Assembly: GCA_964565565.1 (NCBI GenBank)
Contig: CAZMFM010000005.1
Coordinates: 21,292-85,291 of the forward strand
Length of the DNA: 64,000 nt
From: an uncultured Spirochaetaceae bacterium
Lineage (GTDB): Bacteria; Myxococcota_A; UBA9160; UBA4427
Direction of reading: 5' to 3'
Each line of letters starts with the position of its first letter. Within the stretch, counting starts at the first letter, position 1. Shown piece by piece: positions 3,240-51,185 of this stretch. A model generated the notes under the pieces. That model ran no database searches and had not been told where the DNA came from. It saw nothing but the letters and a program-made list of their open reading frames with translations. The translations under genes and the position numbers were made by a program.

Positions 3240-3753
3240 GTGAAACCCATGCCATCTCGAATGGCATGGGGGGTCTCGTTGGAAACGCTGATCGTGGAAC
3301 GAAGGGACGGCGTCGTGAAAGTAACGATGAACCGCCCCGAAAAGATGAATGCGCCGAGCCACACGATGTTTCGCGAACTGCTCGAGGTCTTCCTCGAGAT
3401 CGGCCAAAGCGAAAGCGACGACGACCGCGTCCTCGTCCTCGTCCTCACGGGCGCTGAGGGAAATTTCAGTGCCGGCGCGGATCTGGGTTCCCACAGACCC
3501 GACCTGCACTTCCTCGCCAGCATGCGATTCCATGGCAGTGTTGGCCTCGCACTTCACAATCTTCCGAAGCCTACGATCGCGAAGATTCGCGGCGTCGCTG
3601 ACGCTCCTGGCCGATATCGTCCCTGCCGAGGAAGCAGAACGGATTGGACTGGTAGACCGGGCCGTACCGGACGGCCAACTCGACGCGTTCGTCGACGATT
3701 GGGCCCAGCGACTAGCTTGCTCTTCTTCGAGCCAGTCGATGACATCCGAATAG
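3240..3753 (+). pseudogene. Enoyl-CoA hydratase/isomerase (crotonase) remnant with internal deletion, frameshift and 3' truncation
   Basis: Frame of 3240 encodes a good crotonase N-terminus (VERRDGVVKVTMNRPEKMNA ... LTGAEGNFSAGADLG ... KPTIAKIRGVA). At about 3590-3600 the homology jumps to the frame of 3349 (LTLLADIVPAEEAERIGLVDRAVPDGQLDAFVDDWAQRLA). The oxyanion-hole/active-site segment (about 55 aa) is skipped and the last about 50 aa are missing. Confidence 0.6.
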
Positions 3754-5127
3754 CGCGAACAACCCTGCTGAGGCAGCAAGAATCGCATTGGGCTCGGGGA
3801 TCTCGAGCGTGATCCAGGTTCGATTGGCGTTGCCGCCCGAAATATCACGAGCGGTCATGGAACCCGTCACGAGCGCGACGACACCATTGCCCGCCGCGTC
3901 ACGCGCGTCGATACCCGTCCGAATGAACATCTCCGAAGTCGCACCAAGGATATCGGTCACCGTAATCGAGAGCCTCCCGGTCGTCAGCGGAAAGCCGACG
4001 CCCTGGTTGCCCTGGCCGGTCACCGGAATACCAGCGCCAATCACCGTAATCGCCGCACCTTGACCAATGATCGTGCCGTTGAAACCCAGGGTCGCGGTAA
4101 AGACACCCGCATTCGTCGTAAACGCCGTACCAATAGCCAGTCCGTCGAAGGCGCCGCCAGCTACCCCGACCGTCGCATCGGATCCCGTCAGATCGACGAC
4201 AGACAGCGAGAACTGACACGGGCCGCCCGTAATGAACGGAACGAAGAAACCCTGAGCGGTCGTCCCTTCGCCTGGCGTGGCAGTGGCCTTGCACGGTAGC
4301 TGCGTTGCCGGATCCAGGGGGACGCCATTGAAGTAGACCTTCGCCGTGCCGATGGCGCGACCGATGGACTGGCCTCCGAATTGGTTGCCCGTCGACGTGA
4401 ACCGAGCGATTCCGTTGACGGGCGGAATGGCTGAGTTGCCAGCCATGGGCGTCTGAATCGTCTGCGGGGGCGCCCCGTTCCCATAGTTGTCAGTCGGACT
4501 ACCAGCCGCCGACGCGCCCGCGTAGTAGGTCACCGTTGCCGCGCCGACGCGGCCACCCGCAGCGAATACGTTCGCACCAGCGGAAGGAATGATCCCACCG
4601 AACTCCTGGGTCACGGCGGGGCCCCCCGAAACCGTGGTTCCGGGATGTGGGCTGTCGTAGGTCAGATTCGTCTGAACTGCGAAAACCGCGGGATTGACGT
4701 TCGCACCACCGAGCGAGCCTTCGGGTTGACCGCCGTAGTGAAAGGCACCGGGAATCAACGTCAACCGGCGCGGACCGGTTCCCGGCGCGGCGGTCTGCAT
4801 GATCGTCGCCATCGGGGTCGGCTTGATCTGACCGGGCTGGCCGAGACCCAAGCCTACCAGCGGCAAGCCATCGGGTGTGGCCGGAACCGTCTGGATCGTG
4901 ATGGCCGTGAATGGACCGGCGGTCGCGGAAAGACCTACGCCGCCCTGGGCGGGCGCGACCGAGATGGGAAGCGGAAGACCGCTGCCGATCTGGCCACGTA
5001 TCTGACCGCCAAGACCACAAGACGTGCCGGAACAAGCGGCGCCTGCCTGTGCCGACGCGGTACCGGCGAGAATAGCGGGCGCTAAGAATGCAGCCATCAG
5101 AATCGCCAACCTGCTGTAGCTAGACAT
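3712..5127 (-). CDS. PEP-CTERM-anchored secreted Gly/Thr/Ala-rich protein
   Basis: 471 aa. Signal peptide MSSYSRLAILMAAFLAPAILAGTASAQA. C-terminus IPEPNAILAASAGLFALFGCHRLARRRAS has a PEP motif, a TM helix and a basic tail. Confidence 0.8.
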   Translation of the reverse strand: MSSYSRLAILMAAFLAPAILAGTASAQAGAACSGTSCGLGGQIRGQIGSGLPLPISVAPAQGGVGLSATAGPFTAITIQTVPATPDGLPLVGLGLGQPGQIKPTPMATIMQTAAPGTGPRRLTLIPGAFHYGGQPEGSLGGANVNPAVFAVQTNLTYDSPHPGTTVSGGPAVTQEFGGIIPSAGANVFAAGGRVGAATVTYYAGASAAGSPTDNYGNGAPPQTIQTPMAGNSAIPPVNGIARFTSTGNQFGGQSIGRAIGTAKVYFNGVPLDPATQLPCKATATPGEGTTAQGFFVPFITGGPCQFSLSVVDLTGSDATVGVAGGAFDGLAIGTAFTTNAGVFTATLGFNGTIIGQGAAITVIGAGIPVTGQGNQGVGFPLTTGRLSITVTDILGATSEMFIRTGIDARDAAGNGVVALVTGSMTARDISGGNANRTWITLEIPEPNAILAASAGLFALFGCHRLARRRAS

Positions 5128-10213: not shown

Positions 10214-11623
10214 CTATCCGCGAAGCACACTGCCGCCGGCGATTTCCACGGGAACGTCGGTCCCGTTCACCAGCGAAACGGATCCGACGATCGCTATGTC
10301 AGCCCCGAAACGATGATCCCCTCGCACCGAAAACCGTTGACACTTCGACAGCGATGGCGCACCGACCGGAAACCGCGCCTGCAGGTCATCGACATGCTGG
10401 TAGTGGTCGGGGTCGAGATCGATCACGCGAATTCGATTCGCCTCCGCGTCGACGGGGATCATCCGCGAGTCCTCACTGACGCGATAGGCATCGGACCAGA
10501 GCGAAAGCAGATCGTTCGTCGTCTTGACCGGTGCGAATCGATCACGTGAAACTACGATCGCTTCGGCCCCATCGAAACACTCAATCGCCGAACCCATCGC
10601 CGTCTCGAGCTGAAAACAGACCGGACTCGACGAATCCTTCGGCTGCACATGCTTCACATTCTTCATGACCGGCAAGGGCAGCCCCGAATCCGAAGCGTCC
10701 AGTCGAGACGCCAGAACATCGAGATCGATCCAGAGATTGTTCGTATTGAAATAGTGGTGCCGGTCGATGTCCTGGAAGGATTCGACATCGGCCTCGGAAC
10801 ATTGGGCCGTCTCACGCAACATCAAACGACCGCCGCGCCGGGCCAGATGGCCGCCCTTCTTGTCGGACTCCGTTCGCTGGGCGACTTCCATGGCGAAGGG
10901 AAGCTGCTTCGAGGCGAACCAACCCAGAATGCTGGGATCGAGCACGGCGCCGAGGTTGTCCGCGTTCGACATGAACGCATAGCGGATTCCTTGCGCGCGC
11001 AAGGTCTGCAACATGCCCGAACTCTCGAGCGCGATATAGATGTCGCCATGACCGGGCGGACACCAACCGAGCGATTCGTCGTCAGGCCAATCCACAGGGG
11101 TCCAGGATTCGGCGTCGATGCGAGGCACCTTGTGTTGAACGAAGTCGAGGGGGATCTCTGTCGCGAGCTCCGCATGCGCCGCTAACGCGGCCAGGGAATC
11201 GTCCCGGGTGCGATAGCTATTCATCAGGACCAGGGGAAGTTGGCTGCCCCAATTCTCGCGCTGCCAGAGAACCTGCCGTGCGATGAGATCCAGAAACGAG
11301 AGGCCGGGGCGAACCGGAAGCAGGCTCTTCGCCTTGGACAGTCCCATGCTCGTCCCGAGGCCGCCATTCAACTTGATGACGACGGTCTTCGACGCCGCGG
11401 CACGACCGGCCTCAGCGAAATGCTCGAGCCCCGCGGCTTCCGGCAGAGAGGCCACCGGCTCGATCGACGCTTCCGGAATCGTTGTCTCGCCTCCACTGGA
11501 AACGAAACGCAGCGCCGCAAGAAAGCTACGCGTCGCGATCTCCGGCAGACCTTCGCCGCGCATCCGATCCGCGAAGCGCGCCAGGCCTGCGTCGTCCAAC
11601 CCCTGCTGACCCATCTCTGACAA
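10214..11623 (-). CDS. UTP--glucose-1-phosphate uridylyltransferase, UDPGP (eukaryote-type) family
   Basis: 469 aa. VVIKLNGGLGTSMGLSKAKSLLPV is the UDPGP-family nucleotide-binding signature. PPGHGDIY and FMSNADNLGA are also present. Confidence 0.85.
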   Translation of the reverse strand: MSEMGQQGLDDAGLARFADRMRGEGLPEIATRSFLAALRFVSSGGETTIPEASIEPVASLPEAAGLEHFAEAGRAAASKTVVIKLNGGLGTSMGLSKAKSLLPVRPGLSFLDLIARQVLWQRENWGSQLPLVLMNSYRTRDDSLAALAAHAELATEIPLDFVQHKVPRIDAESWTPVDWPDDESLGWCPPGHGDIYIALESSGMLQTLRAQGIRYAFMSNADNLGAVLDPSILGWFASKQLPFAMEVAQRTESDKKGGHLARRGGRLMLRETAQCSEADVESFQDIDRHHYFNTNNLWIDLDVLASRLDASDSGLPLPVMKNVKHVQPKDSSSPVCFQLETAMGSAIECFDGAEAIVVSRDRFAPVKTTNDLLSLWSDAYRVSEDSRMIPVDAEANRIRVIDLDPDHYQHVDDLQARFPVGAPSLSKCQRFSVRGDHRFGADIAIVGSVSLVNGTDVPVEIAGGSVLRG

Positions 11624-24901: not shown

Positions 24902-27900
24902 GACGCCTGGCCCTGGGTATGATCGGCTTCGGCGTTTTCCTCACCGCCACGACATCCCTCTACGCCGAAATCGACGCGCGTCGCATCAACCTCTCGTCGG
25001 AGTTCGCCGATCCGGTCGCATGGCGAAACGTGGAGGGGCTACCGTTTTGGGTGGCCGGACAACGGCCTCGCTACGCCTTCGAAGACCGTAGTCATCACGT
25101 CGAGCTGGCACCTGGCGATGAAATTCAACTGATCGTACCGACCGGCGAAGGCGTACTCGTCCAAGGAGAATCCGGCGAGATCGCGCAGCTCGAATGGTCC
25201 ACTTCGAACGGTTCGGGGCTCTGGGCGCAAGCCGTTGCGGTTGAGACCGAGGAGAACGATCAGCTCATGCTTCCCTTTTCGGTGCGCAGCACGCGCCTGA
25301 TTTCGATCCGTCTCACGCAAGACGCGACGCAACCGATCGACATCAAGGTCTTTGTCTCCCGTCGCGACCGAGGCACGACGCTTCGCTTCGAGCGAAAGTC
25401 CATCCCGCTCCGCGCGAATCGACGCACGTTGTTTCTTGGGCTGCAGCACCAGGCGGGGCCCCTCTACGAGCTGAGTCCGGGCGACGAATTGAGTGTCGAG
25501 GTCGACGGCGGGCATCGCTATCTGCTCGAACATCGGGTCTTCTATCCCCGCGATATCTCGGATCGGCGCTTCAACTATCGCGTCGAGCTTCGCGCTGGCG
25601 ATCGCTCGAGTGAGAGTGAATTCGTGGCATCCCCCGAAGTGCGCGATTGGGCGACCGTCGGCGGACGACCACGCGTCGTCGGACGCCTCATGCGAAGCTA
25701 CATCGATGTGCCCGCCGGACATAGCGCACTCGCTATCCGGACAGATGCACCACTTCTTGCCAGACTGCTAGGCCCCTTCGACGAACATCGTGCCAACTGG
25801 GCCAGTCATTCCGAATCCACCGCCGAAGGATCGGCGTGGCTAGCCGATTGGTCGACGATCGAATCGGATGCCGTCTCAGATCCTCGTTCAAACGCTCACC
25901 AGCGCGGACTGCTGCGGATCGCGAGAGACAACCGTCGAGAGGACGCCGGATTGCTCGCAGCAGAAAGGGCGATCGCCGAGGCTCGCGCCATGCCGAATAT
26001 TCCGCCCCTGCGCAGGTTCGCCCAAACGCTTTCCATCTCACAGATCGGCTACCGCGGCCTACTCCCCCATCGAGACAAGAAGGTGAGTTCCCTGGAGTCT
26101 CGCTCCTACATCTATGTCACCGCTGCAATTCGTTCACCCGTCGACGACCGGGATCGCTACGTATTAGGCGACCAACACGCGACGTCTCTACGAAGGCAGA
26201 CACTCTCCGGCCGCTTTGCCCCTCTACCCGCGGCCGGCGAGGAACTCGTCTACAGCCTGCCTGAGAGAGCGGCTTCGAGCAGACTTCGTCTCGCCCTGCA
26301 ACCTCGGGGGCCGGCCGGAGATACTTGCCGACTGAGTATCGATCTCGACGGGAACCACGGGGTAGAACTCCGCGTCGGGTCGATGCCGGCTCTGAACCTG
26401 CTCGACGTGGGTGCCGCAGCGGTGGCCACCTCCCTGCAAACGGAGGGCGGCGATATTCCCGGCAATGTCGCCGGCCTTGGCTGGAGTTCCGAGACATCGA
26501 GCACCGAGTTCGATTTACCGAAGTCCACGCAGATCGTCCGGGTCCGGGCCACGGAATGCGAGGGACGACGAATCGCGTTGGCCTACGGAATTGGCCGACA
26601 GGATTCGATGAACGAGGCCGAGTATCGCGCAGCGGTGAATGCGATCGGCGGACCAGAGGCCGGAACGCGCCTTTTCTTTACGGCCCTCGACAAGCTCGAC
26701 GAAGTTCTGAATGGCGAAACGCCCCTGGCGTCAGCCATAGGCAAGGCGGCTGGCGAAACAGCCTGGCAACGGGCGGCGTCGGCTCGACTCTTGAACCATT
26801 GGATTCCCTCCCTCAACCGACTCCGAGCCTGGAGCATCGCCTACCGCCATCAAAGCGAGGCGATCGGGCCGAGGACCGCCGATCATTCCACTGTCAACGA
26901 AGCCCGGGGATCGAGTGATCTGCGCGTCACGGCGACCGAGCTCGAAGCGGACAGGAATTGGCTGGCGGCCTACGAAACCTGGATGAAGATCGCGCGTGCT
27001 GGAACGCTTGAAGCGGCGAGCCGAGCTCGACTACGAGCCGCCCACGCCTTGCTCGAATCTGGCGATGCGAGCCTCGCCGCAGCGATCCTGAAATCAGAAA
27101 CCAGTCACGCCCCTGACCGAAGCCTTCGCACGCAGGCCTTCGAACAGCTCGCCGCAATCTATCATCGCCAGGGAAACGATGTTGAGCTGGTCGGGTTGTT
27201 GGCTTCACGGGCCATATCGACCGTCGATGGCACCCGCGGCGAAGCGCTGGCCCGACTAGCCGATCTGGCGTTGGAAGAAGGCAAGCGAACGCTTGCCCTG
27301 CGACTCGATCTGATCCTTCCTGAAGCGAATTTCGACAGCGAGCGCCGAATCGAAGCGGCCTATCTGAATGGATGGTGGACGACATTCGAAGAGTCGCTCT
27401 CGGCAAACGAGCAGACGGTTGCCAATCGTTGGCGCGGCTACCGAGCCCAACAAGCGGGGGATTTTTCCGCGGCGCGGCGGCATTGGCGAGACGCGGACGG
27501 CGTCGGACGGTCTGCGCTCGATGCGTTGGAGCGAGCCTTCGAGATTCGAGAAGAACTCGTTGACGGCAGCACCCGGGAGCGCCACCACGCCCTGCAACGT
27601 TGGGCTGGCTGGCGTCGCCGGCTGCCCGGACGACGGGTCTGGAAGTCCGCGGAGCACCTGGTCGTCACCGAAGATGGTGGAGAGCGGCTGCGATCACGGT
27701 CCATTGGCGCATTTTCGCGCTGGGCTCGCTCGACACCTGGTCGACCCGTCCGAATCCGTGTCGTCGGTCCGACCACGCTTCGGATCGATACGCGCCCGCT
27801 ACTAGGCGAGGCCGACCCGCGTAATGAACCCGGCTGGCTCACCTTCCGGACCAAACGCCGACATTGGCGATCACCCCTCGATCGTGCATCGATCTCGACG

Positions 27901-30225
27901 GGACTCGAGCGTTTGCAGGACGGACTTGAACGGGTCGGAACGCGATCTCGCAGCCAGCTCGTCATCGATCCCGGAGTTCATGAAATCGAAATCTTCGACC
28001 CACGAGGCCCGACACTCGTCCGACTCTTCGAAGAAAAGGCGCAGCTCGACTTTGCCATTCTGCCAGACCTCGGCCCGGGCGCCCTCGATTGGCTCTCTGG
28101 CAACTCGCCACCGGCCGCAACATCCGCCATCGACTGCAGCACCTTCGCCGGACATAACATATGCTCTCGCCCCCTTCTGGCTCTTCCGAAGGCAGCGGGC
28201 GAAAGCACCGCGCTCGTTGACGTGACAAAACGCTTTGACCCTGCACTCTTCGAAGAAGCCATCGGCGAAGACTTCGACGCGGCCTGGCCTTTCCTGATAC
28301 CGGCCGCAGAACTTCCTCCCGCCGACGCAGCCGTCAGCGACGTGTTTCGGCCCGCAACCGGACCGGAAGAGATCGTTCGCGACACCTGGCTGATCGCCGA
28401 AAGAAACCGTCAACCGAACGGACGAATGGCGCGCATCGGCGCGTTGGCCGATCTCTCTCTCGACGATCCGATGATCCAGCGTCTCTACAAGCGAACGATG
28501 TCTAGTTTTCACTGGAAGCGAATCAAGAGGGTTGTGGAAAGCGCGGGCGTTCGTCGCGTCCCCCAGACTTTGGGCGCGCCTCTTACACCCGGCTCCCGAA
28601 GAGCCTGGCCCCTGCTGAGCGCCGCCTGTCGTCAAAGCGATCGATTGCGTGAGTCGAGAGAACTCGTCGTGAACGTCGAGCTTGGCCGCCACCGCGCGCT
28701 GACGGTCGAGATCGAACTTTGTCACGCGACTTCCCGGACACCCAGGCCTGGGAGCGCCTTGATCGAAGTGGACGGCGAGCTGCGTGACGAGTTCCTGCTC
28801 GATGCGACGCTGCGGATGGCAAAGCTCGACCTGGAGCTGGAGCCCGGGTCGCATTCGATCCGAGTCCTCGCGGGCATGGTACCCCGGGGCCAGACACTCG
28901 GCGTCCGCGTCCTCCAGAACGGGCAGCCGATCAACGCGAACCGCAAGCGCGCCTACCATCTGGCCCGGCCGGATTCGCCCGTCGTCATGCAGATCGAGGG
29001 CCCAACGCGCCTGCGCATCGATCGGCTCCATGCGGGCGTGACACGTACCGCCTATCGCTCGATCCCAGCCGGCGGTTCGCGCATCGAGCTTGGGACCGAA
29101 GGTCGTTCCCAAATGCTCTATCGGGTGACGCGTGCTGTCCGAAACGACACCACGCCTGCGCCCCACGAAGCAACGCCGCCCCGCCCGGGCCCCGACTTCC
29201 CAGCTCATCTGGTCGCCTCCCTCGACGAGCCACCTCCTCCCCCGGAACCGTTGGCCACCAAGGACGTCCGCGCCGGCCACGAGGACGGAACCTGGACGGC
29301 CACCGCACGATATATCTCCCGAAGTACCGACAATGATGATCCGAGGTCGCGCGTCAGCGAGGCCATGGGTGAGCTACGTGGGACACACCGCTTCCTCAAT
29401 CGGTCCTGGGGATTCTATTCCCAGACAGATCTATTAGCGCGACCTAGAAAGGATGGAGGACCCACATTCGGGGGAAGGACCAAATGGGTCTGGCCGAGCT
29501 TCGGTGTCTGGCGCGGCCTCGAACGACGAGCCAGTCTGACAACGTTCTTGCAACCTCCGACGGACGGTCCGAACCGACTCGAAGCGCTATTAGGCGGTCA
29601 GGTCGAGGCTGCACTTCCCCACTCGATCACAGCCAAGCTTCGGCACCGACCTTCGGTCGCCCTCTTCGCTCGCTGGCTGAGTCTCGACGATCGCAATGGA
29701 TATCCGAGGGAAAATCTGGATCGAGATGTCTTCACCCCCTACAAGGCCGACCATCTCTACGGGTTGCGCCTGAAAGATTCCCTGTCGCTTCGTCCAATGC
29801 GAGATGTCTTGACGAGGTTCGACATCGGAATCCAATCCAACGAGGACTTCAACGTCTTCTCTCCCGATCGACTCTCCCTCGGGCTTTCGGGAGCCACCCT
29901 CTACGAAGGCCTGGGAATCAGTGCCGGTTACGCCTGGCGCCACTACTTCGAAGACGACGATCGAAGTCAAGACATCGATCGCCATGACCTCTTCTTGAAT
30001 CTCCAACTCGAACGATGGATGCCGCTGGCCCGTCGATGGCAATTTGGCGTGCGAACCCGCTACGAGATCACGAGAGGGACGACTGACCTGATGCTCACGC
30101 TCTCGTTGCATTTTGGTCGCGAACGCGGTTTCAGGGACTTCGCTCCGAATTCGATCCGATTTCGAAGCGAACGAGATCTATCGCGACGTCGACAAACGAA
30201 TTCGAGCCGGAGACACAAAAATTGA
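24898..30225 (+). CDS. Operon gene E: 1776-aa secreted protein with central TPR-like region, Pro-rich linker and C-terminal beta-barrel-like domain (candidate outer-membrane export component)
   Basis: Start taken at ATG 24898 (ATGA overlap with D), giving signal peptide MRRLALGMIGFGVFLTATTSLYAEID. TPR-like helices lie around 26930-27560. PPPPPEP linker at about 29230. The last about 280 aa show alternating-hydrophobic strands (YGLRLKDSLSL, TRFDIGIQSN, LSLGLSGATLY, GISAGYAWRHYF, LFLNLQLERW, WQFGVRTRYEI, LMLTLSLHFG). Confidence 0.7.
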   Translation: MRRLALGMIGFGVFLTATTSLYAEIDARRINLSSEFADPVAWRNVEGLPFWVAGQRPRYAFEDRSHHVELAPGDEIQLIVPTGEGVLVQGESGEIAQLEWSTSNGSGLWAQAVAVETEENDQLMLPFSVRSTRLISIRLTQDATQPIDIKVFVSRRDRGTTLRFERKSIPLRANRRTLFLGLQHQAGPLYELSPGDELSVEVDGGHRYLLEHRVFYPRDISDRRFNYRVELRAGDRSSESEFVASPEVRDWATVGGRPRVVGRLMRSYIDVPAGHSALAIRTDAPLLARLLGPFDEHRANWASHSESTAEGSAWLADWSTIESDAVSDPRSNAHQRGLLRIARDNRREDAGLLAAERAIAEARAMPNIPPLRRFAQTLSISQIGYRGLLPHRDKKVSSLESRSYIYVTAAIRSPVDDRDRYVLGDQHATSLRRQTLSGRFAPLPAAGEELVYSLPERAASSRLRLALQPRGPAGDTCRLSIDLDGNHGVELRVGSMPALNLLDVGAAAVATSLQTEGGDIPGNVAGLGWSSETSSTEFDLPKSTQIVRVRATECEGRRIALAYGIGRQDSMNEAEYRAAVNAIGGPEAGTRLFFTALDKLDEVLNGETPLASAIGKAAGETAWQRAASARLLNHWIPSLNRLRAWSIAYRHQSEAIGPRTADHSTVNEARGSSDLRVTATELEADRNWLAAYETWMKIARAGTLEAASRARLRAAHALLESGDASLAAAILKSETSHAPDRSLRTQAFEQLAAIYHRQGNDVELVGLLASRAISTVDGTRGEALARLADLALEEGKRTLALRLDLILPEANFDSERRIEAAYLNGWWTTFEESLSANEQTVANRWRGYRAQQAGDFSAARRHWRDADGVGRSALDALERAFEIREELVDGSTRERHHALQRWAGWRRRLPGRRVWKSAEHLVVTEDGGERLRSRSIGAFSRWARSTPGRPVRIRVVGPTTLRIDTRPLLGEADPRNEPGWLTFRTKRRHWRSPLDRASISTGLERLQDGLERVGTRSRSQLVIDPGVHEIEIFDPRGPTLVRLFEEKAQLDFAILPDLGPGALDWLSGNSPPAATSAIDCSTFAGHNICSRPLLALPKAAGESTALVDVTKRFDPALFEEAIGEDFDAAWPFLIPAAELPPADAAVSDVFRPATGPEEIVRDTWLIAERNRQPNGRMARIGALADLSLDDPMIQRLYKRTMSSFHWKRIKRVVESAGVRRVPQTLGAPLTPGSRRAWPLLSAACRQSDRLRESRELVVNVELGRHRALTVEIELCHATSRTPRPGSALIEVDGELRDEFLLDATLRMAKLDLELEPGSHSIRVLAGMVPRGQTLGVRVLQNGQPINANRKRAYHLARPDSPVVMQIEGPTRLRIDRLHAGVTRTAYRSIPAGGSRIELGTEGRSQMLYRVTRAVRNDTTPAPHEATPPRPGPDFPAHLVASLDEPPPPPEPLATKDVRAGHEDGTWTATARYISRSTDNDDPRSRVSEAMGELRGTHRFLNRSWGFYSQTDLLARPRKDGGPTFGGRTKWVWPSFGVWRGLERRASLTTFLQPPTDGPNRLEALLGGQVEAALPHSITAKLRHRPSVALFARWLSLDDRNGYPRENLDRDVFTPYKADHLYGLRLKDSLSLRPMRDVLTRFDIGIQSNEDFNVFSPDRLSLGLSGATLYEGLGISAGYAWRHYFEDDDRSQDIDRHDLFLNLQLERWMPLARRWQFGVRTRYEITRGTTDLMLTLSLHFGRERGFRDFAPNSIRFRSERDLSRRRQTNSSRRHKN

Positions 30226-32258
30226 CTCGGCCCGGTCTCGGACAGTTCCTGTCGCAAGGATTGCGACCCCTCGCACTCCGCGTCGAAGCCACTCGGCTCC
30301 TTGAGCTCGAGGAGCAGCTCGTCGCGCGCGGTGTCGACGCAGCGAAGCCGGACGCCAGCCGGGTCGTGGAGTTGCTCGTTACCACCACGGAGAGCGCGAC
30401 CCAAGAACTGGCCTTGCTACGCCAGAGTTATGTCGACTTCGCGTCGAGCTATCAGAGCTCCGAGGGCGGAGCTGAATGCGATGAAATCATCCTGGAATTT
30501 GCGAAATGCCTGGGGTCCGAGGGTGTCGCGTTGCGCGAAGACCGGAAGGCGCTGCGGCGCTATTTCGACTACGACGCGGTGGTCGAGCGATTCAGTCGCC
30601 GCGAACAAATCGCGGAGCAGCGGATCGGCTTCCTGATCGAACGGGTCGGATCGATCGCCTCGGCAGTCATGCGAGGCGCGTTGCCGGTCGAGTCGTTGCC
30701 TCTCTTTCAGCGCTTTGAGATCGAATCCCTGGCTACGCCGCTGCTTGCGCATGTGGGTGACGAGCGCGTGCGAGTCGAGGCCTTCCGCTGTTTGTCCCGC
30801 TGCCTGACCACCCTTCCCGCCGGCCAGGAAATCGGGGCGGTCGCGGCGCAGCTCGTCCAGTTCGTCAATCGGGCTGCGTTGGATCCCGGCCAGAACATTT
30901 GGATCCAATCGGAAGCCCTCGCCCTCGTGCTCCATACATCGCCGTCGATCTTTGCCCGTACCGTCCGCAAGAGACTCTCAGATCCGCGCGAGGGCGATGA
31001 TCTCTTCGTGCGCCGCAGAGCCGTTCGCATGATTGCCTCACGACTTCGCGATCAGCCCGAGCTGAACGAATGCATCGAATTGATCGTCGCCGACCCGAGC
31101 CCCTACGTGCGACAGGAGCTCCCGGGATGCCTGGCCAGAAGCCTTCCTGAAAAATCCCTCGACGTGATCGGCTCGTTGGTACGCAACGATCCGGCCGGCC
31201 CGGTACGCGCTTCCGCTCTCCTGGCCCTGCCGCTCCTGGCCGAGGCGGGTGAGGAGATCATGTCCCTTCGTATCCTGCTCGAGGAAGTCTTCTCCTACGA
31301 ACGGGACGACTATGTCATTCGAGTCGGCCTGCGCGTGGCGGACGAACTCCAGAAGACCGTGCTTCTCGCCGGGGATCTCGAGCTTGCCGCGGGCTGGTAT
31401 CGCGCGCTCCGCCCTGCCCTCGAACGCCTCCACTGTCAGGCGAATTCCTTCGTCGTTCGGCGCGCGGCCGCGCGCACGCGCGAACGATTGTGGAGTCGTG
31501 CAGACGCGGACCGACGCGCCGTCCTCGAAGGCCTCGAAGCGATCCGAGACGCAACTCGGCCACATGATCGGACACGACGATCGTGCGAAAAGTTGAGGGC
31601 GGTCTCTCGAGAAACGCTCGGGCGCCTCATGGCCGTCGCGGCTGAACACGACTTCGGCCTCTTCGCGGAGACACGAAGCCGCCGATTCCGAATCACCCGC
31701 GGCCACCGCTTCGGCTTTCGCCTTTGGCGCCTATTGCACGAGTTGCGAAATCCCGCGACCGACAAACGACAGGCACATCGCCACATCATCGGTCGCGTCT
31801 TTCGCGGTGACCTGCACGCGCCGTCCGCGATCCTTGCCGAACTCTCCGAAACGACCGTTCCCGGCGAACCCCTCTACATCGAGGAAGAAGACGGTTGGCG
31901 ACCCTACCTACCACTCGTCGATGAGGTCATTTCGAGCCTCGATGAAGGATTCAAGGCCCGCACCCTCGAGATCTATTCAGCAGAGGGTGTCACGGAGGTC
32001 ATCTCGCCCGACGCACTCTTCGCGCGGCTGCGAGCCCGAATGCGACTGTGCCGGCGATTTCAACACTATGCGAGATTGCGAAATTGGCGTGTGGATCGCG
32101 GAGGACGGCCATCTTCCTACGTCGAAGCTTTGCGCGAACTGGGCATCGAGGTCCGCTATCGACCGCACGACGAGCAAGCGGGCAGTCCCGGTAGCGATCC
32201 GCACGCGGCCACCTCTTCGGACGAGTCAGTCCTGCGATTCTTCGAGGATGCGAAATGA
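30222..32258 (+). CDS. Operon gene F: cytoplasmic HEAT-repeat protein of unknown function
   Basis: 678 aa, TTG start inside a TTGA overlap with E. No TM or signal peptide. Repeated xxVRxxAxxxL helices (DERVRVEAFRCLSR, DLFVRRRAVRMIASRL, PSPYVRQELPGCLARSL, DPAGPVRASALLALPLL, DYVIRVGLRVADEL, SFVVRRAAARTRERL). Confidence 0.6.
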   Translation: MTRPGLGQFLSQGLRPLALRVEATRLLELEEQLVARGVDAAKPDASRVVELLVTTTESATQELALLRQSYVDFASSYQSSEGGAECDEIILEFAKCLGSEGVALREDRKALRRYFDYDAVVERFSRREQIAEQRIGFLIERVGSIASAVMRGALPVESLPLFQRFEIESLATPLLAHVGDERVRVEAFRCLSRCLTTLPAGQEIGAVAAQLVQFVNRAALDPGQNIWIQSEALALVLHTSPSIFARTVRKRLSDPREGDDLFVRRRAVRMIASRLRDQPELNECIELIVADPSPYVRQELPGCLARSLPEKSLDVIGSLVRNDPAGPVRASALLALPLLAEAGEEIMSLRILLEEVFSYERDDYVIRVGLRVADELQKTVLLAGDLELAAGWYRALRPALERLHCQANSFVVRRAAARTRERLWSRADADRRAVLEGLEAIRDATRPHDRTRRSCEKLRAVSRETLGRLMAVAAEHDFGLFAETRSRRFRITRGHRFGFRLWRLLHELRNPATDKRQAHRHIIGRVFRGDLHAPSAILAELSETTVPGEPLYIEEEDGWRPYLPLVDEVISSLDEGFKARTLEIYSAEGVTEVISPDALFARLRARMRLCRRFQHYARLRNWRVDRGGRPSSYVEALRELGIEVRYRPHDEQAGSPGSDPHAATSSDESVLRFFEDAK

Positions 32259-45156: not shown

Positions 45157-45771
45157 TCAAGCTTCCGGGATTTCACCTCGACCGACGCGGCTGACGACAA
45201 GCTCACTACCCTCTGATTGCAGGATCGTCGACGGCTCGGGCCACATCGGGCCGCCATCGAGCACGAGTTCGACCCGCCCCCGGAAAAGACGCTCGAGGTC
45301 CTCGGGATCCTCGAGCTCGGGCTCGTCATCCCCACTCGTGAGCGATCCGGTCACGAGTGGCTCACCCAACATCTCGACCAACATCCGACACAGAGGTGAG
45401 TCCGGCATGCGTAAGCCGATCTCCCCGTGTCGGTTCCGCATATCTCTCGGTACTTCTGCGCTGGCCTCGAGAATGATCGTATAGGAGCCGGGCAGGATCC
45501 GGCGCACAGTGCGAAAAACGCTCGTTCCCATGATCGCGAAATGACCGAAGTCACTTAGCTCATTGACCAACATCGAAAGCGGCTTCTTCGAGCGACTATC
45601 GAAGCCTTTGAGCGTGCGAATACCGGCGATTCCCTTGCGACTCGAGAGCGCGCAGCCGAAGGCGTAGCCGGTATCGGTCGGATAGAGAATGACGCGATCA
45701 CGGTGGAGGGCTTCGAGGACCGGGGCGAGCTTTCGCGGTGCCGGTCGAGCTGGATCGATTCGAACGCGCAC
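45157..45771 (-). CDS. tsaC: L-threonylcarbamoyladenylate synthase (YrdC/TsaC family)
   Basis: 204 aa. VILYPTDTGYAFGC, KGFDSRSKKPLSMLV and LPGSYTIIL are YrdC-domain motifs. Confidence 0.85.
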   Translation of the reverse strand: MRVRIDPARPAPRKLAPVLEALHRDRVILYPTDTGYAFGCALSSRKGIAGIRTLKGFDSRSKKPLSMLVNELSDFGHFAIMGTSVFRTVRRILPGSYTIILEASAEVPRDMRNRHGEIGLRMPDSPLCRMLVEMLGEPLVTGSLTSGDDEPELEDPEDLERLFRGRVELVLDGGPMWPEPSTILQSEGSELVVSRVGRGEIPEA

Positions 45772-45783
45772 TTCTCCTTCAAT

Positions 45784-46329
45784 TCATGGCGCGGGCGGGG
45801 CGCTCGTCATACGACGTGGAAAGCCGAGCTCCTCGAGCTTCGCCACGATGTCGGCGCCCGCGGTCGCCGGGCGCACACTCTTGTCGATCGCCCGCAGGAT
45901 TCCCTTCGCATCGATATAGAAGGTCCAGCGTCTGGAATAGAGTCCGCCCAATCCGATCACACCGAATTGTTTCGCGACCTCCCCCTTCGCATCACTTACC
46001 ACGGGAAGGCTCGCGCCCATCGATGCCGCGAACTTCGCGTTCTTCTCGGGCGTATCAAGGCTCACGTAGAGTACGTCGACATCGAATTCGGCGAGTTGCT
46101 GGGCGCTGTCACGCAGCGCCGCGAGTTCAGTCGTTCAACCCGGTGTAAAAGCTTTCGGAAACCAAGCGATCACCACGCCGCGTTCGCCGAGGGCGTCCGC
46201 GCGTCGATGGATCACGCCGCCCGCCCCCTGAAACTCGAAATCCGGGATCGGTGCGCCGATCTCGGGTGCAGCGGCTGCGGCCAATGGCGTACAGGCGAGA
46301 ATTCCCGCCAGTAGGGATCGAATCTTCAT
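45784..46329 (-). CDS. Secreted peroxiredoxin (BCP/AhpC-TSA type) with in-frame UGA at the peroxidatic Cys position (probable selenoprotein)
   Basis: Track ORFs 46135-46329 and 45784-46065 are in the same frame and separated by one TGA (46135-46137). Read-through gives MKIRSLLAGILACTPLAAAAAP...VVIAWFPKAFTPG-U-TTELAALRDSAQQLAEFDVDVLYVSLDTPEKN... (181 aa). Cys homologs carry FTPGCT. Confidence 0.75.
46102..46120 (-). promoter_or_regulatory. Candidate bacterial SECIS hairpin
   Basis: mRNA GGCGCU-GCGUGAC-AGCGCC is a 6-bp GC-rich stem (7 bp if the G-C closing the loop pairs). The loop contains GU. The stem begins 14 nt after the UGA and the loop lies about 21-27 nt downstream. Confidence 0.4.
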
Positions 46330-46507: not shown

Positions 46508-47686
46508 ATGGCTGCAAAACCCGGCTTCAACTGGTCCGACCCACTCGAATTCGAAGAGCAGCTCAGCAACGAAGAGCGGCTGATCCAGGACAGCACGCGG
46601 GAATATGCCCAGGACAAATTGATGTCACGCGTCCTGATGGCCAACCGACACGAGACCTTCGATCGCGAAATCTTGAACGAGATGGGAGCCATCGGTCTGC
46701 TCGGCTCGACGCTGCCGACGAAATACGGCTGTGCAGAAGTTTCCCACGTCGCCTACGGCCTGATCGCACGGGAAGTCGAGCGGGTCGACTCCGGCTATCG
46801 CTCGGTGATGAGCGTGCAGTCGTCGCTTGTCATGCATCCGATCTTTACCTACGGAACCGAGGCGCAAAGAGAACGGTGGCTGCCCGGCCTGGCGAGTGGC
46901 GAGTTGGTTGGTTGCTTCGGACTGACCGAGCCCGACCACGGCTCCGATCCCGGCAGTATGCGGACCCGGGCCGAAAAAACGGACGGCGGCTATCTCCTGA
47001 CCGGTAGCAAGACCTGGATCACCAACAGCCCGATCGCAGACGTCGCCGTTGTCTGGGCGAAACTCGATGGCGATATTCGTGGCTTCATCCTCGAGAAGGG
47101 CATGAAGGGACTGAGCTTTCCCAAGATCGAGGGAAAGATGTCTTTGCGCGCTTCGACGACCGGCGAAATCGTCATGGATCAGGTCTTCGTCCCGGAAGAG
47201 AATTTCTTTCCCGAGATCCGCGGACTGGCCGGTCCCTTCGGTTGTCTCAACAAGGCGCGCTTCGGGATTGCCTGGGGATCGCTGGGCGCCGCCGAATTCT
47301 GCTGGCATGCGGCACGGCAATACACCCTCGATCGCGAGCAATTCGGCCGGCCCCTGGCCGCGAACCAGTTGATCCAGGTGAAATTGGTCGACATGCAAAC
47401 CGAAATCACCTTGGGGTTGCACGCTTGCCTGCGTGCGGGTCGATTGATGGACGAAGGTCGCCTGGCGCCCGAGAACATCTCCCTGCTGAAGCGGAATAAT
47501 TGTGGCAAGGCGTTGGCCATCGCGCGCGTCGCGCGGGACATGCACGGCGGCAATGGCATTTCCGACGAGTACCACGTGATTCGGCACTGCATGAACCTCG
47601 AGTCCGTGAACACCTATGAAGGGACCCACGATATCCATGCGCTGATTCTCGGTCGCGCGCAAACCGGCATCGCAGCATTCAGTTAG
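46508..47686 (+). CDS. gcdH: Glutaryl-CoA dehydrogenase
   Basis: 392 aa. [36 protein letters not shown] and [30 protein letters not shown] closely resemble proteobacterial GcdH as recalled. Confidence 0.85.
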
Positions 47687-49340: not shown

Positions 49341-49499
49341 GTCGACCGGCCCGGACTGGCTCCGCGAGGCGCATCGCGACGCTGATGCGCGCGTATGCGG
49401 CCAAGGGCACGATCGAAATCAAGAAGGACCTTTGAAGGTTCATCCACGGGCCCTTGGCCCGCACTCCAATCGAATGAAAACAATGAAAGAGGTTCCCCC

Positions 49500-50681
49500 A
49501 TGGCAGAACGAGAAGTCGTCATTGTAGAAGCAGTTCGAACACCACTGGGTCGCCGCAATGGCGCGTTGGCCGCGATGCATTCCATCGACCTGCTCGGCCT
49601 GGTTCAGGCCGAAGCGATTCGGCGTGCCGGGATCGAGGCCACGCAGATTGGCCAAGTCGTCGGTGGCTGTGTCGGACAGGTCGGTATGCAGACAATGAAC
49701 GTGACGCGAAATGCCTGGCTGACCGCGGGACTGCCGCTCGAAGTGCCGGCGACAACCGTGGATACGCAATGTGGTTCTTCTCAGCAGGCGACGAATCTGG
49801 CCTACGCCCTGATTAAGTCGGGGGTCGTCGACGTCGCCATGGGTTGTGGTGTCGAAGTCATGAGCCGCGTGCCGATGGGTGCAACCATCCCGAAGGATCC
49901 CGATGTTGGAAAGCCGGTCAACGCGAACTACTGGAAGCATTTCGAGTTCACCTCACAATTCGACGGCGCCGAGCGAATCGCCAAACAATGGGGCATCACG
50001 CGCGCGGACACCGATGCCTTCGGCAAGATGTCTCAAGATCGTGGCGCCACGGCCTGGGCGGAAGATCGCTTCGCCTCCCAGATTCTCGCCGTCGACGCCC
50101 CGGTCGGTTTCGAGGACGGCAAGCCAACCGAAGAAACCCAACATGTCGATCGCGATGGCGGGCTTCGCGAGACGACCATGGAAGCGCTGGCGGGATTGCG
50201 CACCAATATGCCCGACGGCGTGCATACGGCGGGAACGTCTTCTCAGATCTGCGACGGCGCGGCCGCGGTCTTGATGATGACGCGAGAAAAGGCGAAGGAA
50301 CTTGGCCTGACGGTCCGGGCAACCCTCGTCGATAGCTGCCTGGTCGGCTCCGATCCCGTGTTGATGCTGACGGGCCCGATCGGCGCGACCCAGAAGCTGC
50401 TCTCGAATAACGACCTGCAAATGGGCGATATCGGCGTCACCGAGATCAATGAGGCCTTTGCTTCCGTCGTGCTCGCCTGGGAGAAGGAGCTCAAGCCGGA
50501 CATGGATACGGTGAACCCGAATGGCGGCGCCATTGCGCTCGGTCATCCCCTCGGCGGCACCGGCGCCATTCTCCTGACCAAGGCCGTCCATGAGTTGGAA
50601 CGGGCCAACAAGGAGCATGCGATCGTCACGATGTGTTGTGGCGGCGGAATCGGAACCGGAACCCTGCTTCGCCGGGGCTAG
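49500..50681 (+). CDS. Acetyl-CoA C-acyltransferase (thiolase)
   Basis: Start at ATG 49500, with GAAAGAGG upstream. VVIVEAVRTPLGRRNG, active-site TVDTQCGSSQQA, NPNGGAIALGHPLGGTG and MCCGGGIG. Confidence 0.9.
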   Translation: MAEREVVIVEAVRTPLGRRNGALAAMHSIDLLGLVQAEAIRRAGIEATQIGQVVGGCVGQVGMQTMNVTRNAWLTAGLPLEVPATTVDTQCGSSQQATNLAYALIKSGVVDVAMGCGVEVMSRVPMGATIPKDPDVGKPVNANYWKHFEFTSQFDGAERIAKQWGITRADTDAFGKMSQDRGATAWAEDRFASQILAVDAPVGFEDGKPTEETQHVDRDGGLRETTMEALAGLRTNMPDGVHTAGTSSQICDGAAAVLMMTREKAKELGLTVRATLVDSCLVGSDPVLMLTGPIGATQKLLSNNDLQMGDIGVTEINEAFASVVLAWEKELKPDMDTVNPNGGAIALGHPLGGTGAILLTKAVHELERANKEHAIVTMCCGGGIGTGTLLRRG

Positions 50682-50714: not shown

Positions 50715-51185
50715 ATGGCCGCAGCAGCAGACCACGAACTCGACGCGCCGCCCTGGCAGCGCGTCGAGTCGACGCTCATGGCCACGGCCCGTGCGATTCG
50801 TCGCGCCTATGAGATTCGGCTGGCCGATCTCGACTTGAACCTGACCGAAGCCAGCCTGCTGGCCTTTCTACTCGAAGCTGGATCGACCACCCAGTCGCGA
50901 CTTGCGTCGCGGCTGGGGCTGGGTCGCGCCGCGGCCGGTCTAGTCATCAACAGCCTCGAGAAGCGGGGACTGATCGAGCGACGCGACGACCCCGAAGATC
51001 GACGGGCCTGGTTGATCGATCTACGCCCAAAGGGCGTACGCATCGTCCAACCCATTCTCGAAATCGACCGGATTCTGCGTGCAGAGCTGCGTTCGGGCAT
51101 CTCACGCCCGGAGCGACAACAACTCGCCGGATTGCTCCTGAGACTCCAGACGAATATCGCCGGTGTGCTCGACGAAGAAGCCTGA
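50715..51185 (+). CDS. MarR-family transcriptional regulator
   Basis: 156 aa. LTEASLLAFLLEAGSTTQSRLASRLGLGRAAAGLVINSLEKRGLIERRDDPEDRRA is a winged-HTH MarR core. Confidence 0.85.
   Translation: MAAAADHELDAPPWQRVESTLMATARAIRRAYEIRLADLDLNLTEASLLAFLLEAGSTTQSRLASRLGLGRAAAGLVINSLEKRGLIERRDDPEDRRAWLIDLRPKGVRIVQPILEIDRILRAELRSGISRPERQQLAGLLLRLQTNIAGVLDEEA

Follow-up and report, generated by a model that had tools for sequence, protein, structure and literature searches.

The window analyzed here, a stretch of 64,000 nucleotides from contig CAZMFM010000005.1 (GenBank assembly GCA_964565565.1, uncultured Spirochaetaceae bacterium), carries on its minus strand, at 45784-46329, a gene for a peroxiredoxin (Prx) in which an internal UGA codon probably specifies selenocysteine (Sec, U). 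The gene comprises 181 codons, from the ATG at 46327-46329 to the terminator TGA at 45784-45786, and the putative Sec-UGA (TGA 46135-46137) is codon 65, at the peroxidatic position of the enzyme. A preliminary description of the sequence had joined two minus-strand open reading frames (ORFs), 46135-46329 (64 aa, ending in TGA) and 45784-46065 (93 aa), as the halves of a single periplasmic selenoprotein gene, and translation confirms that the two share one frame and are split by this TGA. The gene is presented below together with its homologs, the hairpin that follows the UGA, the encoded protein, and a second UGA-containing gene of the same window.

Gene Layout and Public Gene Calls

The translation of 45784-46329 contains a single internal stop, TGA 46135-46137, flanked by VVIAWFPKAFTPG on the N-terminal side and by TTELAALRDSAQQ on the C-terminal side. 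The read-through product begins with MKIRSLLAGILACTPLAAAAAPEIG, passes through VVIAWFPKAFTPG, the stop, and TTELAALRDSAQQLAEFDVDVLYVSLD to RRWTFYIDAKG, and ends with PPAP at the terminator. When Cys is substituted at the stop, the Pfam model AhpC-TSA (PF00578) matches residues 24-147, spanning the UGA, with E = 1.2e-27 and 96.8 bits against a cut-off of 26, and Redoxin (PF08534) is matched with E = 5.8e-16. In a clustered protein database, full-length matches of approximately 160-225 aa are found at 45-63% identity. The nearest relatives there, at 71-88% identity, are all calls of approximately 99-121 aa that start just past the UGA, except for the 182-aa P0008, the start of which likewise lies just past the UGA position. 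Close relatives in NCBI, JGI, ENA, and Logan are represented by C-terminal fragments of 99-121 aa only (P0019, P0022, P0030, P0040, P0052, and others), P0052 being a 111-aa "redoxin domain-containing protein" of a Myxococcota metagenome-assembled genome (MAG) in NCBI. The start codons of the C-terminal calls vary among ATG, TTG, and GTG (MAALRDSA..., MAEFDVDV..., LNEFDVDV...) and are non-homologous between relatives, and the gene calls of an independent assembly of the locus (GCA_006243245.1, described below) consist of the identical 64-aa and 93-aa pieces. The expectation that standard gene callers would truncate this gene is thus borne out, as public calls split or shorten it and its relatives. 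Overall, 45784-46329 reads as one continuous AhpC/TSA (BCP/PrxQ-like) peroxiredoxin gene that is interrupted solely by TGA 46135-46137.

Codon 65 in Homologous Loci

DNA of 160 related loci was gathered from genome and metagenome collections, and 157 of these are long enough for the codon aligned with the window TGA to be read. The alignment of Cys and Sec homologs that had been proposed as a check gives a clear division at this codon: TGA in 59 loci, TGC or TGT in 98, and TAA or TAG in none. By contrast, the true terminators of the Sec-type genes, where recovered, are 29 TGA, 16 TAG, and 8 TAA; an internal site that is exclusively TGA in genes with mixed terminators is unlike the product of random nonsense mutations. 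The surroundings of the active site, AWFPKAFT(x)G[U/C]T, are nearly invariant across the 157 loci, and the Sec form accounts for approximately 38% (59/157) of the sampled secreted BCP-like family. The closest loci belong to MAGs labeled Deltaproteobacteria, Myxococcota, or Myxococcales, and the record titles of the TGA loci include Myxococcota/Deltaproteobacteria, Acidobacteriota, Planctomycetota, and Verrucomicrobiota, i.e., at least four phyla, as well as marine and soil metagenomes. In a rough neighbor-joining tree, Sec and Cys forms are interleaved, with at least 14 changes of state; together with the register of the downstream hairpin common to the Sec forms, described below, this topology hints at an ancestral Sec with repeated replacement by Cys, or at lateral transfer.

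Both forms also occur side by side. In an Acidobacteria MAG (L066, JADZCY010000223.1), two paralogs lie on the same strand approximately 700 bp apart, with active-site codons at 2528 and 3220; the Cys-type paralog has TGC within AFTQGCTIECKSL, and the Sec-type paralog has TGA between AFTGG and TAECKSL.

Selective constraint was compared on the two sides of the UGA in ten orthologs of the window clade. The median ratio of nonsynonymous to synonymous substitution rates (dN/dS) is 0.137 upstream (42 codons) and 0.138 downstream (105 codons), and this equality indicates that both halves are translated in the same frame under the same constraint. Furthermore, the locus was recovered in three other data sets. 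The organism itself also occurs in GCA_006243105.1, SRR32234002, and SRR6439370. The independent assembly GCA_006243245.1 (L161) is 99.9% identical at the locus and has the TGA, and a strain variant from SRR32234005 (L162), with 95.7% nucleotide identity and three amino-acid changes upstream, retains it. On the sequence comparisons, a sequencing error, an assembly error, and a pseudogene are regarded as excluded.

The Probable bSECIS Hairpin

A bacterial selenocysteine insertion sequence (bSECIS) is modeled as a stem of 4-16 bp with an apical loop of 3-9 nt, a G among the first two nucleotides of the loop, with G or U as the usual next base, a distance of 16-37 nt from the UGA to the loop, and a minimum free energy of -7.5 kcal/mol or lower (PMC13188914). 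The GC-rich hairpin that had been noted 14 nt past the UGA lies at 46102-46120 (minus strand) within codons 71-76 (A-L-R-D-S-A), and its core, GGCGCUG-CGUGA-CAGCGCC, forms a 7-bp stem and a 5-nt loop that contains the GU reported earlier. The stem begins 14 nt and the loop 21 nt after the UGA, the second loop position is G and is followed by U, and the core hairpin alone has an energy of -12.1 kcal/mol; a bSECIS prediction, as had been suggested, therefore agrees with the published model in four of four criteria.

The comparative evidence was obtained in a fixed register, with the U of UGA as nucleotide 1 and stem nucleotides 18-24 and 30-36, and with the Cys-type genes as control. All 59 Sec-type genes form 6-7 of the 7 pairs (mean 6.76), whereas the Cys-type genes form a mean of 4.05, with 6-7 pairs in only 8 of 98. 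The local fold energy differs in the same direction, at -17.8 kcal/mol for Sec and -13.9 kcal/mol for Cys forms (Mann-Whitney p = 2e-7). Among 57 distinct Sec sequences, standard pairs occupy 96.5% of the cells, compared with 22-63% in controls in which the 3′ arm was shifted by 1-3 columns. Changes on both sides that preserve pairing are seen in four of the seven pairs (50 cells), and none of 500 shuffles matched the covariation score. Where the stem closes on the loop, 32 sequences pair G with C and 25 pair C with G; this alternation couples the third base of a Leu codon (CUG/CUC, synonymous) to the third base of an Asp/Glu codon (GAC/GAG), a coupling that no protein-level reason explains. 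The loop itself is CGUGA in 45 of the 59 Sec forms, and the register is common to all.

The peptide encoded by the hairpin (46102-46122, codons 70-76) is near-fixed as (A/S)-L-R-(D/E)-S in the Sec forms, and the same codons vary freely in the Cys forms (LAENG, MRENG, LRENS, and others). The near-fixed L-R-(D/E)-S is a visible cost of a SECIS placed inside coding sequence.

Domain, Active Site, and Predicted Export

The best solved relatives of the encoded protein are of the PrxQ/BCP type (5epf, E = 2.5e-17; 3drn, E = 1.5e-13), and these matches settle the fold. The PxxxTxxC motif of peroxiredoxins, which the preliminary description had recognized with U in place of the peroxidatic Cys, is confirmed by alignment: P58-K-A-F-T62-P-G-U65 (PxxxTxxU; 46135-46158, minus strand) is near-invariant in the 157 loci, and residue 65 pairs with the Cys of AAMTPGCTKE in PDB entry 5epf. 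The catalytic arginine, Arg134 (45928-45930, minus strand), lies in the motif RWTFYID and is matched in the 5epf alignment by the Arg of KRTTFVID. In the family consensus, conservation reaches at least 90% for RWTFYI and likewise for each of the catalytic residues P58, T62, U65, and R134.

The 181-codon length given for the product is confirmed, and the signal peptide proposed for it is apparent from the sequence and conserved in orthologs. Residues 1 to approximately 21 (46267-46329, minus strand; MKIRSLLAGILACTPLAAAAA, followed by PEIG) form a predicted signal peptide of the Sec type (here in the sense of the translocon), with a basic n-region, a hydrophobic core, and an AxA site. The N-terminus, MKIR followed by a hydrophobic stretch and AAAAA before PE, recurs in orthologs and across the wider family. 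The signal peptide, from its sequence and this conservation, predicts export. A lipoprotein was also considered on account of ILAC at residues 10-13 and was rejected, because Cys13 is replaced by Trp in close orthologs and the motif is therefore not a lipobox.

The mature protein of the window clade contains no cysteine, and its active site reads U-T-T-E-L-A. More distant Sec and Cys forms (e.g., L011, L013, and L015) have a second Cys at +4 (C/U-T-x-E-C), which the window clade has lost altogether. In E. coli-type Bcp, the resolving Cys is at +5. The resolving Cys of atypical 2-Cys BCP/PrxQ enzymes is thus absent from the window protein, and we infer that the mature form is a "1-Sec" peroxiredoxin.

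Interpretation and Alternatives

We interpret 45784-46329 as a Sec-peroxiredoxin gene whose product is predicted to be exported, with a probability of approximately 0.9. The Sec reading follows from the Sec/Cys pairing at codon 65, the covarying and Sec-specific hairpin, the equal dN/dS on both sides of the UGA, and the retention of TGA in the strain variant. In the proposed mechanism, UGA codon 65 would be recoded during translation: SelB carrying Sec-tRNA(Sec) would bind the bSECIS 14 nt downstream, and Sec would be delivered instead of release factor 2 acting at the codon. The 181-residue chain would be exported via the Sec translocon and its signal peptide removed, and in the periplasm T62 and R134 of the Prx pocket would activate the U65 selenolate, which would attack peroxide and be converted to a selenenic acid. 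Because the mature protein contains no cysteine, an intramolecular resolving step would not be available and an external thiol reductant would be needed to regenerate the selenol, as in 1-Cys peroxiredoxins.

Several results weigh against this interpretation. In the 64-kb window, selA, selB, selD, and tRNA-Sec were not found by Pfam on 40 ORFs, ARAGORN, and Rfam; ARAGORN likewise detected no tRNA-Sec in any of the 169 fetched loci, and no Sec machinery adjoins any homologous locus. Folding of the 71 nt that follow the UGA gives an energy that is ordinary relative to shuffled sequences (z = 0.17, in coding sequence of 61% GC), a value that is uninformative, so that the significance of the hairpin rests on the comparative evidence and not on thermodynamics. 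Rfam also returned no match to the hairpin, either in a gathering-threshold scan of the whole window or in a permissive scan of 46000-46200, both of which gave chance-level matches only, with no SECIS or tRNA-Sec family; this result carries little weight because, to our knowledge, Rfam seems to hold no general model for bacterial SECIS. As for the host, the cis evidence and the known abundance of selenoproteins in the former Deltaproteobacteria (PMC1794560) lead us to infer a Sec-decoding trait.

The alternative that survives best is that one of the standard amino acids (Cys, Trp, or Gly) is inserted at codon 65 through near-cognate decoding, a suppressor, or a reassigned code. It draws on the lack of visible Sec machinery in the window and on the indirect nature of the case for Sec decoding, and we nevertheless consider it improbable. 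TGA terminates 15 of the 34 Pfam-supported genes of the window, the Prx gene included, and as an ordinary terminator it indicates the standard genetic code and argues against reassignment. Plain read-through needs no hairpin, whereas a bSECIS-type hairpin is conserved and covarying in the TGA forms only, and the residue aligned with the UGA is the redox-active Cys, which makes a classic Sec/Cys pair. A nonsense mutation or a sequencing or assembly error, with the gene being a pseudogene, would accord with the behavior of gene callers, which read a stop and split the gene; its probability is lower still and very small, as the TGA recurs in 59 loci of at least four phyla, with neither TAA nor TAG in its place at any locus, is identical in the independent assembly and kept in the 95.7%-identical variant, and is followed by sequence with a dN/dS of approximately 0.14, equal to that upstream, with no frame-breaking indels in relatives. 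That the TGA is a true stop between two genes, one for a secreted peptide of 64 aa and one for a C-terminal redoxin fragment of 93 aa, is suggested by the mechanical listing of two ORFs and by the fragments in public annotations and is of negligible probability, given that the AhpC/TSA model is continuous across the stop (residues 24-147), that neither fragment alone holds a complete Prx fold, that the C-terminal fragments of relatives start at differing, non-homologous ATG, TTG, and GTG codons, and that Cys-type homologs are single full-length proteins; a conserved stop with a separate downstream gene, which had been named as the observation that would speak against a selenoprotein, was accordingly not seen.

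Relation to Known Peroxiredoxin Families

Sec-peroxiredoxins of the TxxU type have long been catalogued, from 2001-2006 on (PMC1088965, PMC1794560, PMC9312934, PMC13188914). The family "Peroxiredoxin (Prx)" (TxxU; COG1225 (Bcp)/PF00578) is listed among the experimentally verified prokaryotic selenoprotein families (PMC9312934, PMC13188914), its verification being that of PrxU from Eubacterium acidaminophilum (Sohling et al., 2001, cited in PMC9312934). Former Deltaproteobacteria are rich in selenoproteins, and three Sec-peroxiredoxins have been reported in the myxobacterium Anaeromyxobacter dehalogenans (PMC1794560). The window protein shares with the Prx (TxxU) family, whose reference accession is WP_011365628.1, the Pfam domain, PxxxTxxU with a peroxidatic Sec, and a bSECIS within the coding sequence directly downstream. 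Both also have Cys homologs that are widespread, and both are found in former Deltaproteobacteria/Myxococcota. Judged on every sequence-level criterion that could be tested, the window gene appears to be an unannotated member of this family and not a new kind. In the cited reviews, we found no discussion of the signal peptide of the window clade, of the lack of any Cys, including a resolving one, in its mature protein, or of the subfamily's position beyond the reach of NCBI's selenoprotein models.

The subfamily nonetheless differs from the better-defined members. With PrxU, the window protein has in common the thiol-peroxidase fold and Sec in place of the peroxidatic Cys; it differs in its length of 181 aa and its signal peptide, the PrxU model having 233 positions, and the PrxU equivalog (NCBIfam NF040737, peroxi_PrxU) was rejected at 42 bits against a cut-off of 270. 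The Bcp equivalog (PRK09437/NF006960, thioredoxin-dependent thiol peroxidase) is the best NCBIfam match (E = 2.7e-19) and was nevertheless rejected as well, at 69.6 bits against a cut-off of 140. Cys-type BCP/PrxQ proteins (PRK09437; 5epf, 3drn) have the TPGCT motif and the RxTF(V/Y)ID arginine in common with the window protein, which departs from them by Sec for Cys, the lack of a second Cys (UTTEL), and the N-terminal signal peptide. A single redox residue and the predicted dependence on an external reductant recall the 1-Cys Prx of Mycobacterium tuberculosis, AhpE (Rv2238c; 1xvw, 4x1u; E of approximately 8e-12), although AhpE-type enzymes, unlike the window protein, are cytoplasmic Cys enzymes of a different Prx subfamily. 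The window gene is therefore best placed in a diverged BCP/PrxQ-like subfamily that is neither orthologous to PrxU nor equivalent to E. coli-type Bcp.

The finding leaves known selenoprotein biology unchanged, and its main value lies in annotation: the gene and its closest relatives are stored publicly as fragments of 93-121 aa, and PrxU, the sole NCBIfam model for Sec-peroxiredoxins, fails to capture this subfamily. The use of selenium in extracytoplasmic peroxide defense may consequently be under-counted in Myxococcota, Acidobacteriota, Planctomycetota, and Verrucomicrobiota. Furthermore, the 59 Sec and 98 Cys genes, with one SECIS register, provide a convenient data set for the constraint that a SECIS places on the encoded peptide (L-R-D/E-S) and are suited to the study of Sec/Cys interconversion.

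A Second UGA-Containing Gene

A scan of the window for in-frame TGA codons that combine a bSECIS-like hairpin with redox surroundings yielded nine candidates, and only two of them, 46135-46137 and 36500-36502, are in frame with protein-family support. The candidates at 10972-10974 and 45214-45216 were rejected as antisense to Pfam-supported genes. TGA 36500-36502 lies in a minus-strand gene for a membrane-anchored Prx-like/redoxin protein (36101-36904; FRGHW-U-PYC), 9.6 kb from the Prx gene, and the gene corresponds to the catalogued family "Prx-like thiol:disulfide oxidoreductase, UxxC." Of 120 full-length homologs, 118 have the first Cys of a CxxC at the position of this TGA. Two further assemblies reproduce the TGA at 100% identity, and none of the other relatives among the homologs compared carries one. 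A hairpin, GUCGCCG-AGUUA-CGGCGAU, is present, and it was rejected as support for Sec because four Cys homologs sharing the encoded peptide VAELRRW also form 5-7 of its 7 pairs. Either a recent change from Cys to Sec or a nonsense pseudogene would account for these findings. Its TGA is suggestive of a Sec-decoding host, though it does not provide independent proof. The earlier claim of two UGA-recoded genes within 10 kb thus stands as regards the presence and distance of a second in-frame TGA, with weaker evidence for recoding there, and the expanded selenoproteome deduced from the pair is not established, no sel genes being present in the window.

The two genes can be combined in a wider proposal, which we regard as speculative and, taken jointly, rather unlikely. 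The 1-Sec Prx would depend on a periplasmic reductant dedicated to it and act in a selenium-based extracytoplasmic relay for peroxide detoxification, for which the membrane-anchored W-U-P-Y-C Prx-like oxidoreductase 9.6 kb away is a candidate reductant, and Sec with its SECIS would be ancestral in the family and replaced many times by Cys. The ancestral part draws on the at least 14 state changes and on a SECIS register common to Sec forms of at least four phyla, most of which also agree in the loop; if true, it would run counter to the reported trend in Prx, which goes from Cys to Sec (PMC1794560).

Neighboring Genes and Other Observations

Downstream of the Prx gene, on the same strand, lies a gene of the Sua5/YciO/YrdC family (45157-45771; PF01300, E = 6e-36), the GTG start of which is 12 nt past the Prx stop and is preceded by GAAGGAG, and the two are probably co-transcribed. 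Upstream, an acyl-CoA dehydrogenase gene (46508-47686, plus strand; PF02771/PF02770/PF00441) is transcribed divergently, and its product is 81-93% identical in orthologous loci. The gene order is conserved in L001-L004, L010, L081-L086, and L005, and the Sua5/YciO/YrdC gene is at the same position in 11 orthologous loci. L005 (JACKFD010000006.1) has TGC at the site and lacks the hairpin and is thus a positional ortholog with Cys. The record of L005 is titled Spirochaetaceae, isolate HK-STAS-MYXO-51, and its neighboring genes have 75-88% protein identity to Myxococcota/Deltaproteobacteria loci; the title may misassign the record taxonomically.

Elsewhere in the window, a 13-bp inverted repeat at approximately 50737-50770 forms a stem-loop of -23 kcal/mol approximately 56 nt downstream of a thiolase gene (49395-50681, plus strand) and may be a transcription terminator; it was a false candidate of the window-wide scan for a TGA with a hairpin. 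Four long ORFs, 23190-24005, 24002-24901, and 32255-34387 on the plus strand and 3712-5127 on the minus strand, have no Pfam match at E<=1e-5; their neighbors include CHASE2-domain and CapC-like genes, and they have no bearing on the Prx finding. The window also contains an ORF of 1782 aa at 24877-30225 on the plus strand.

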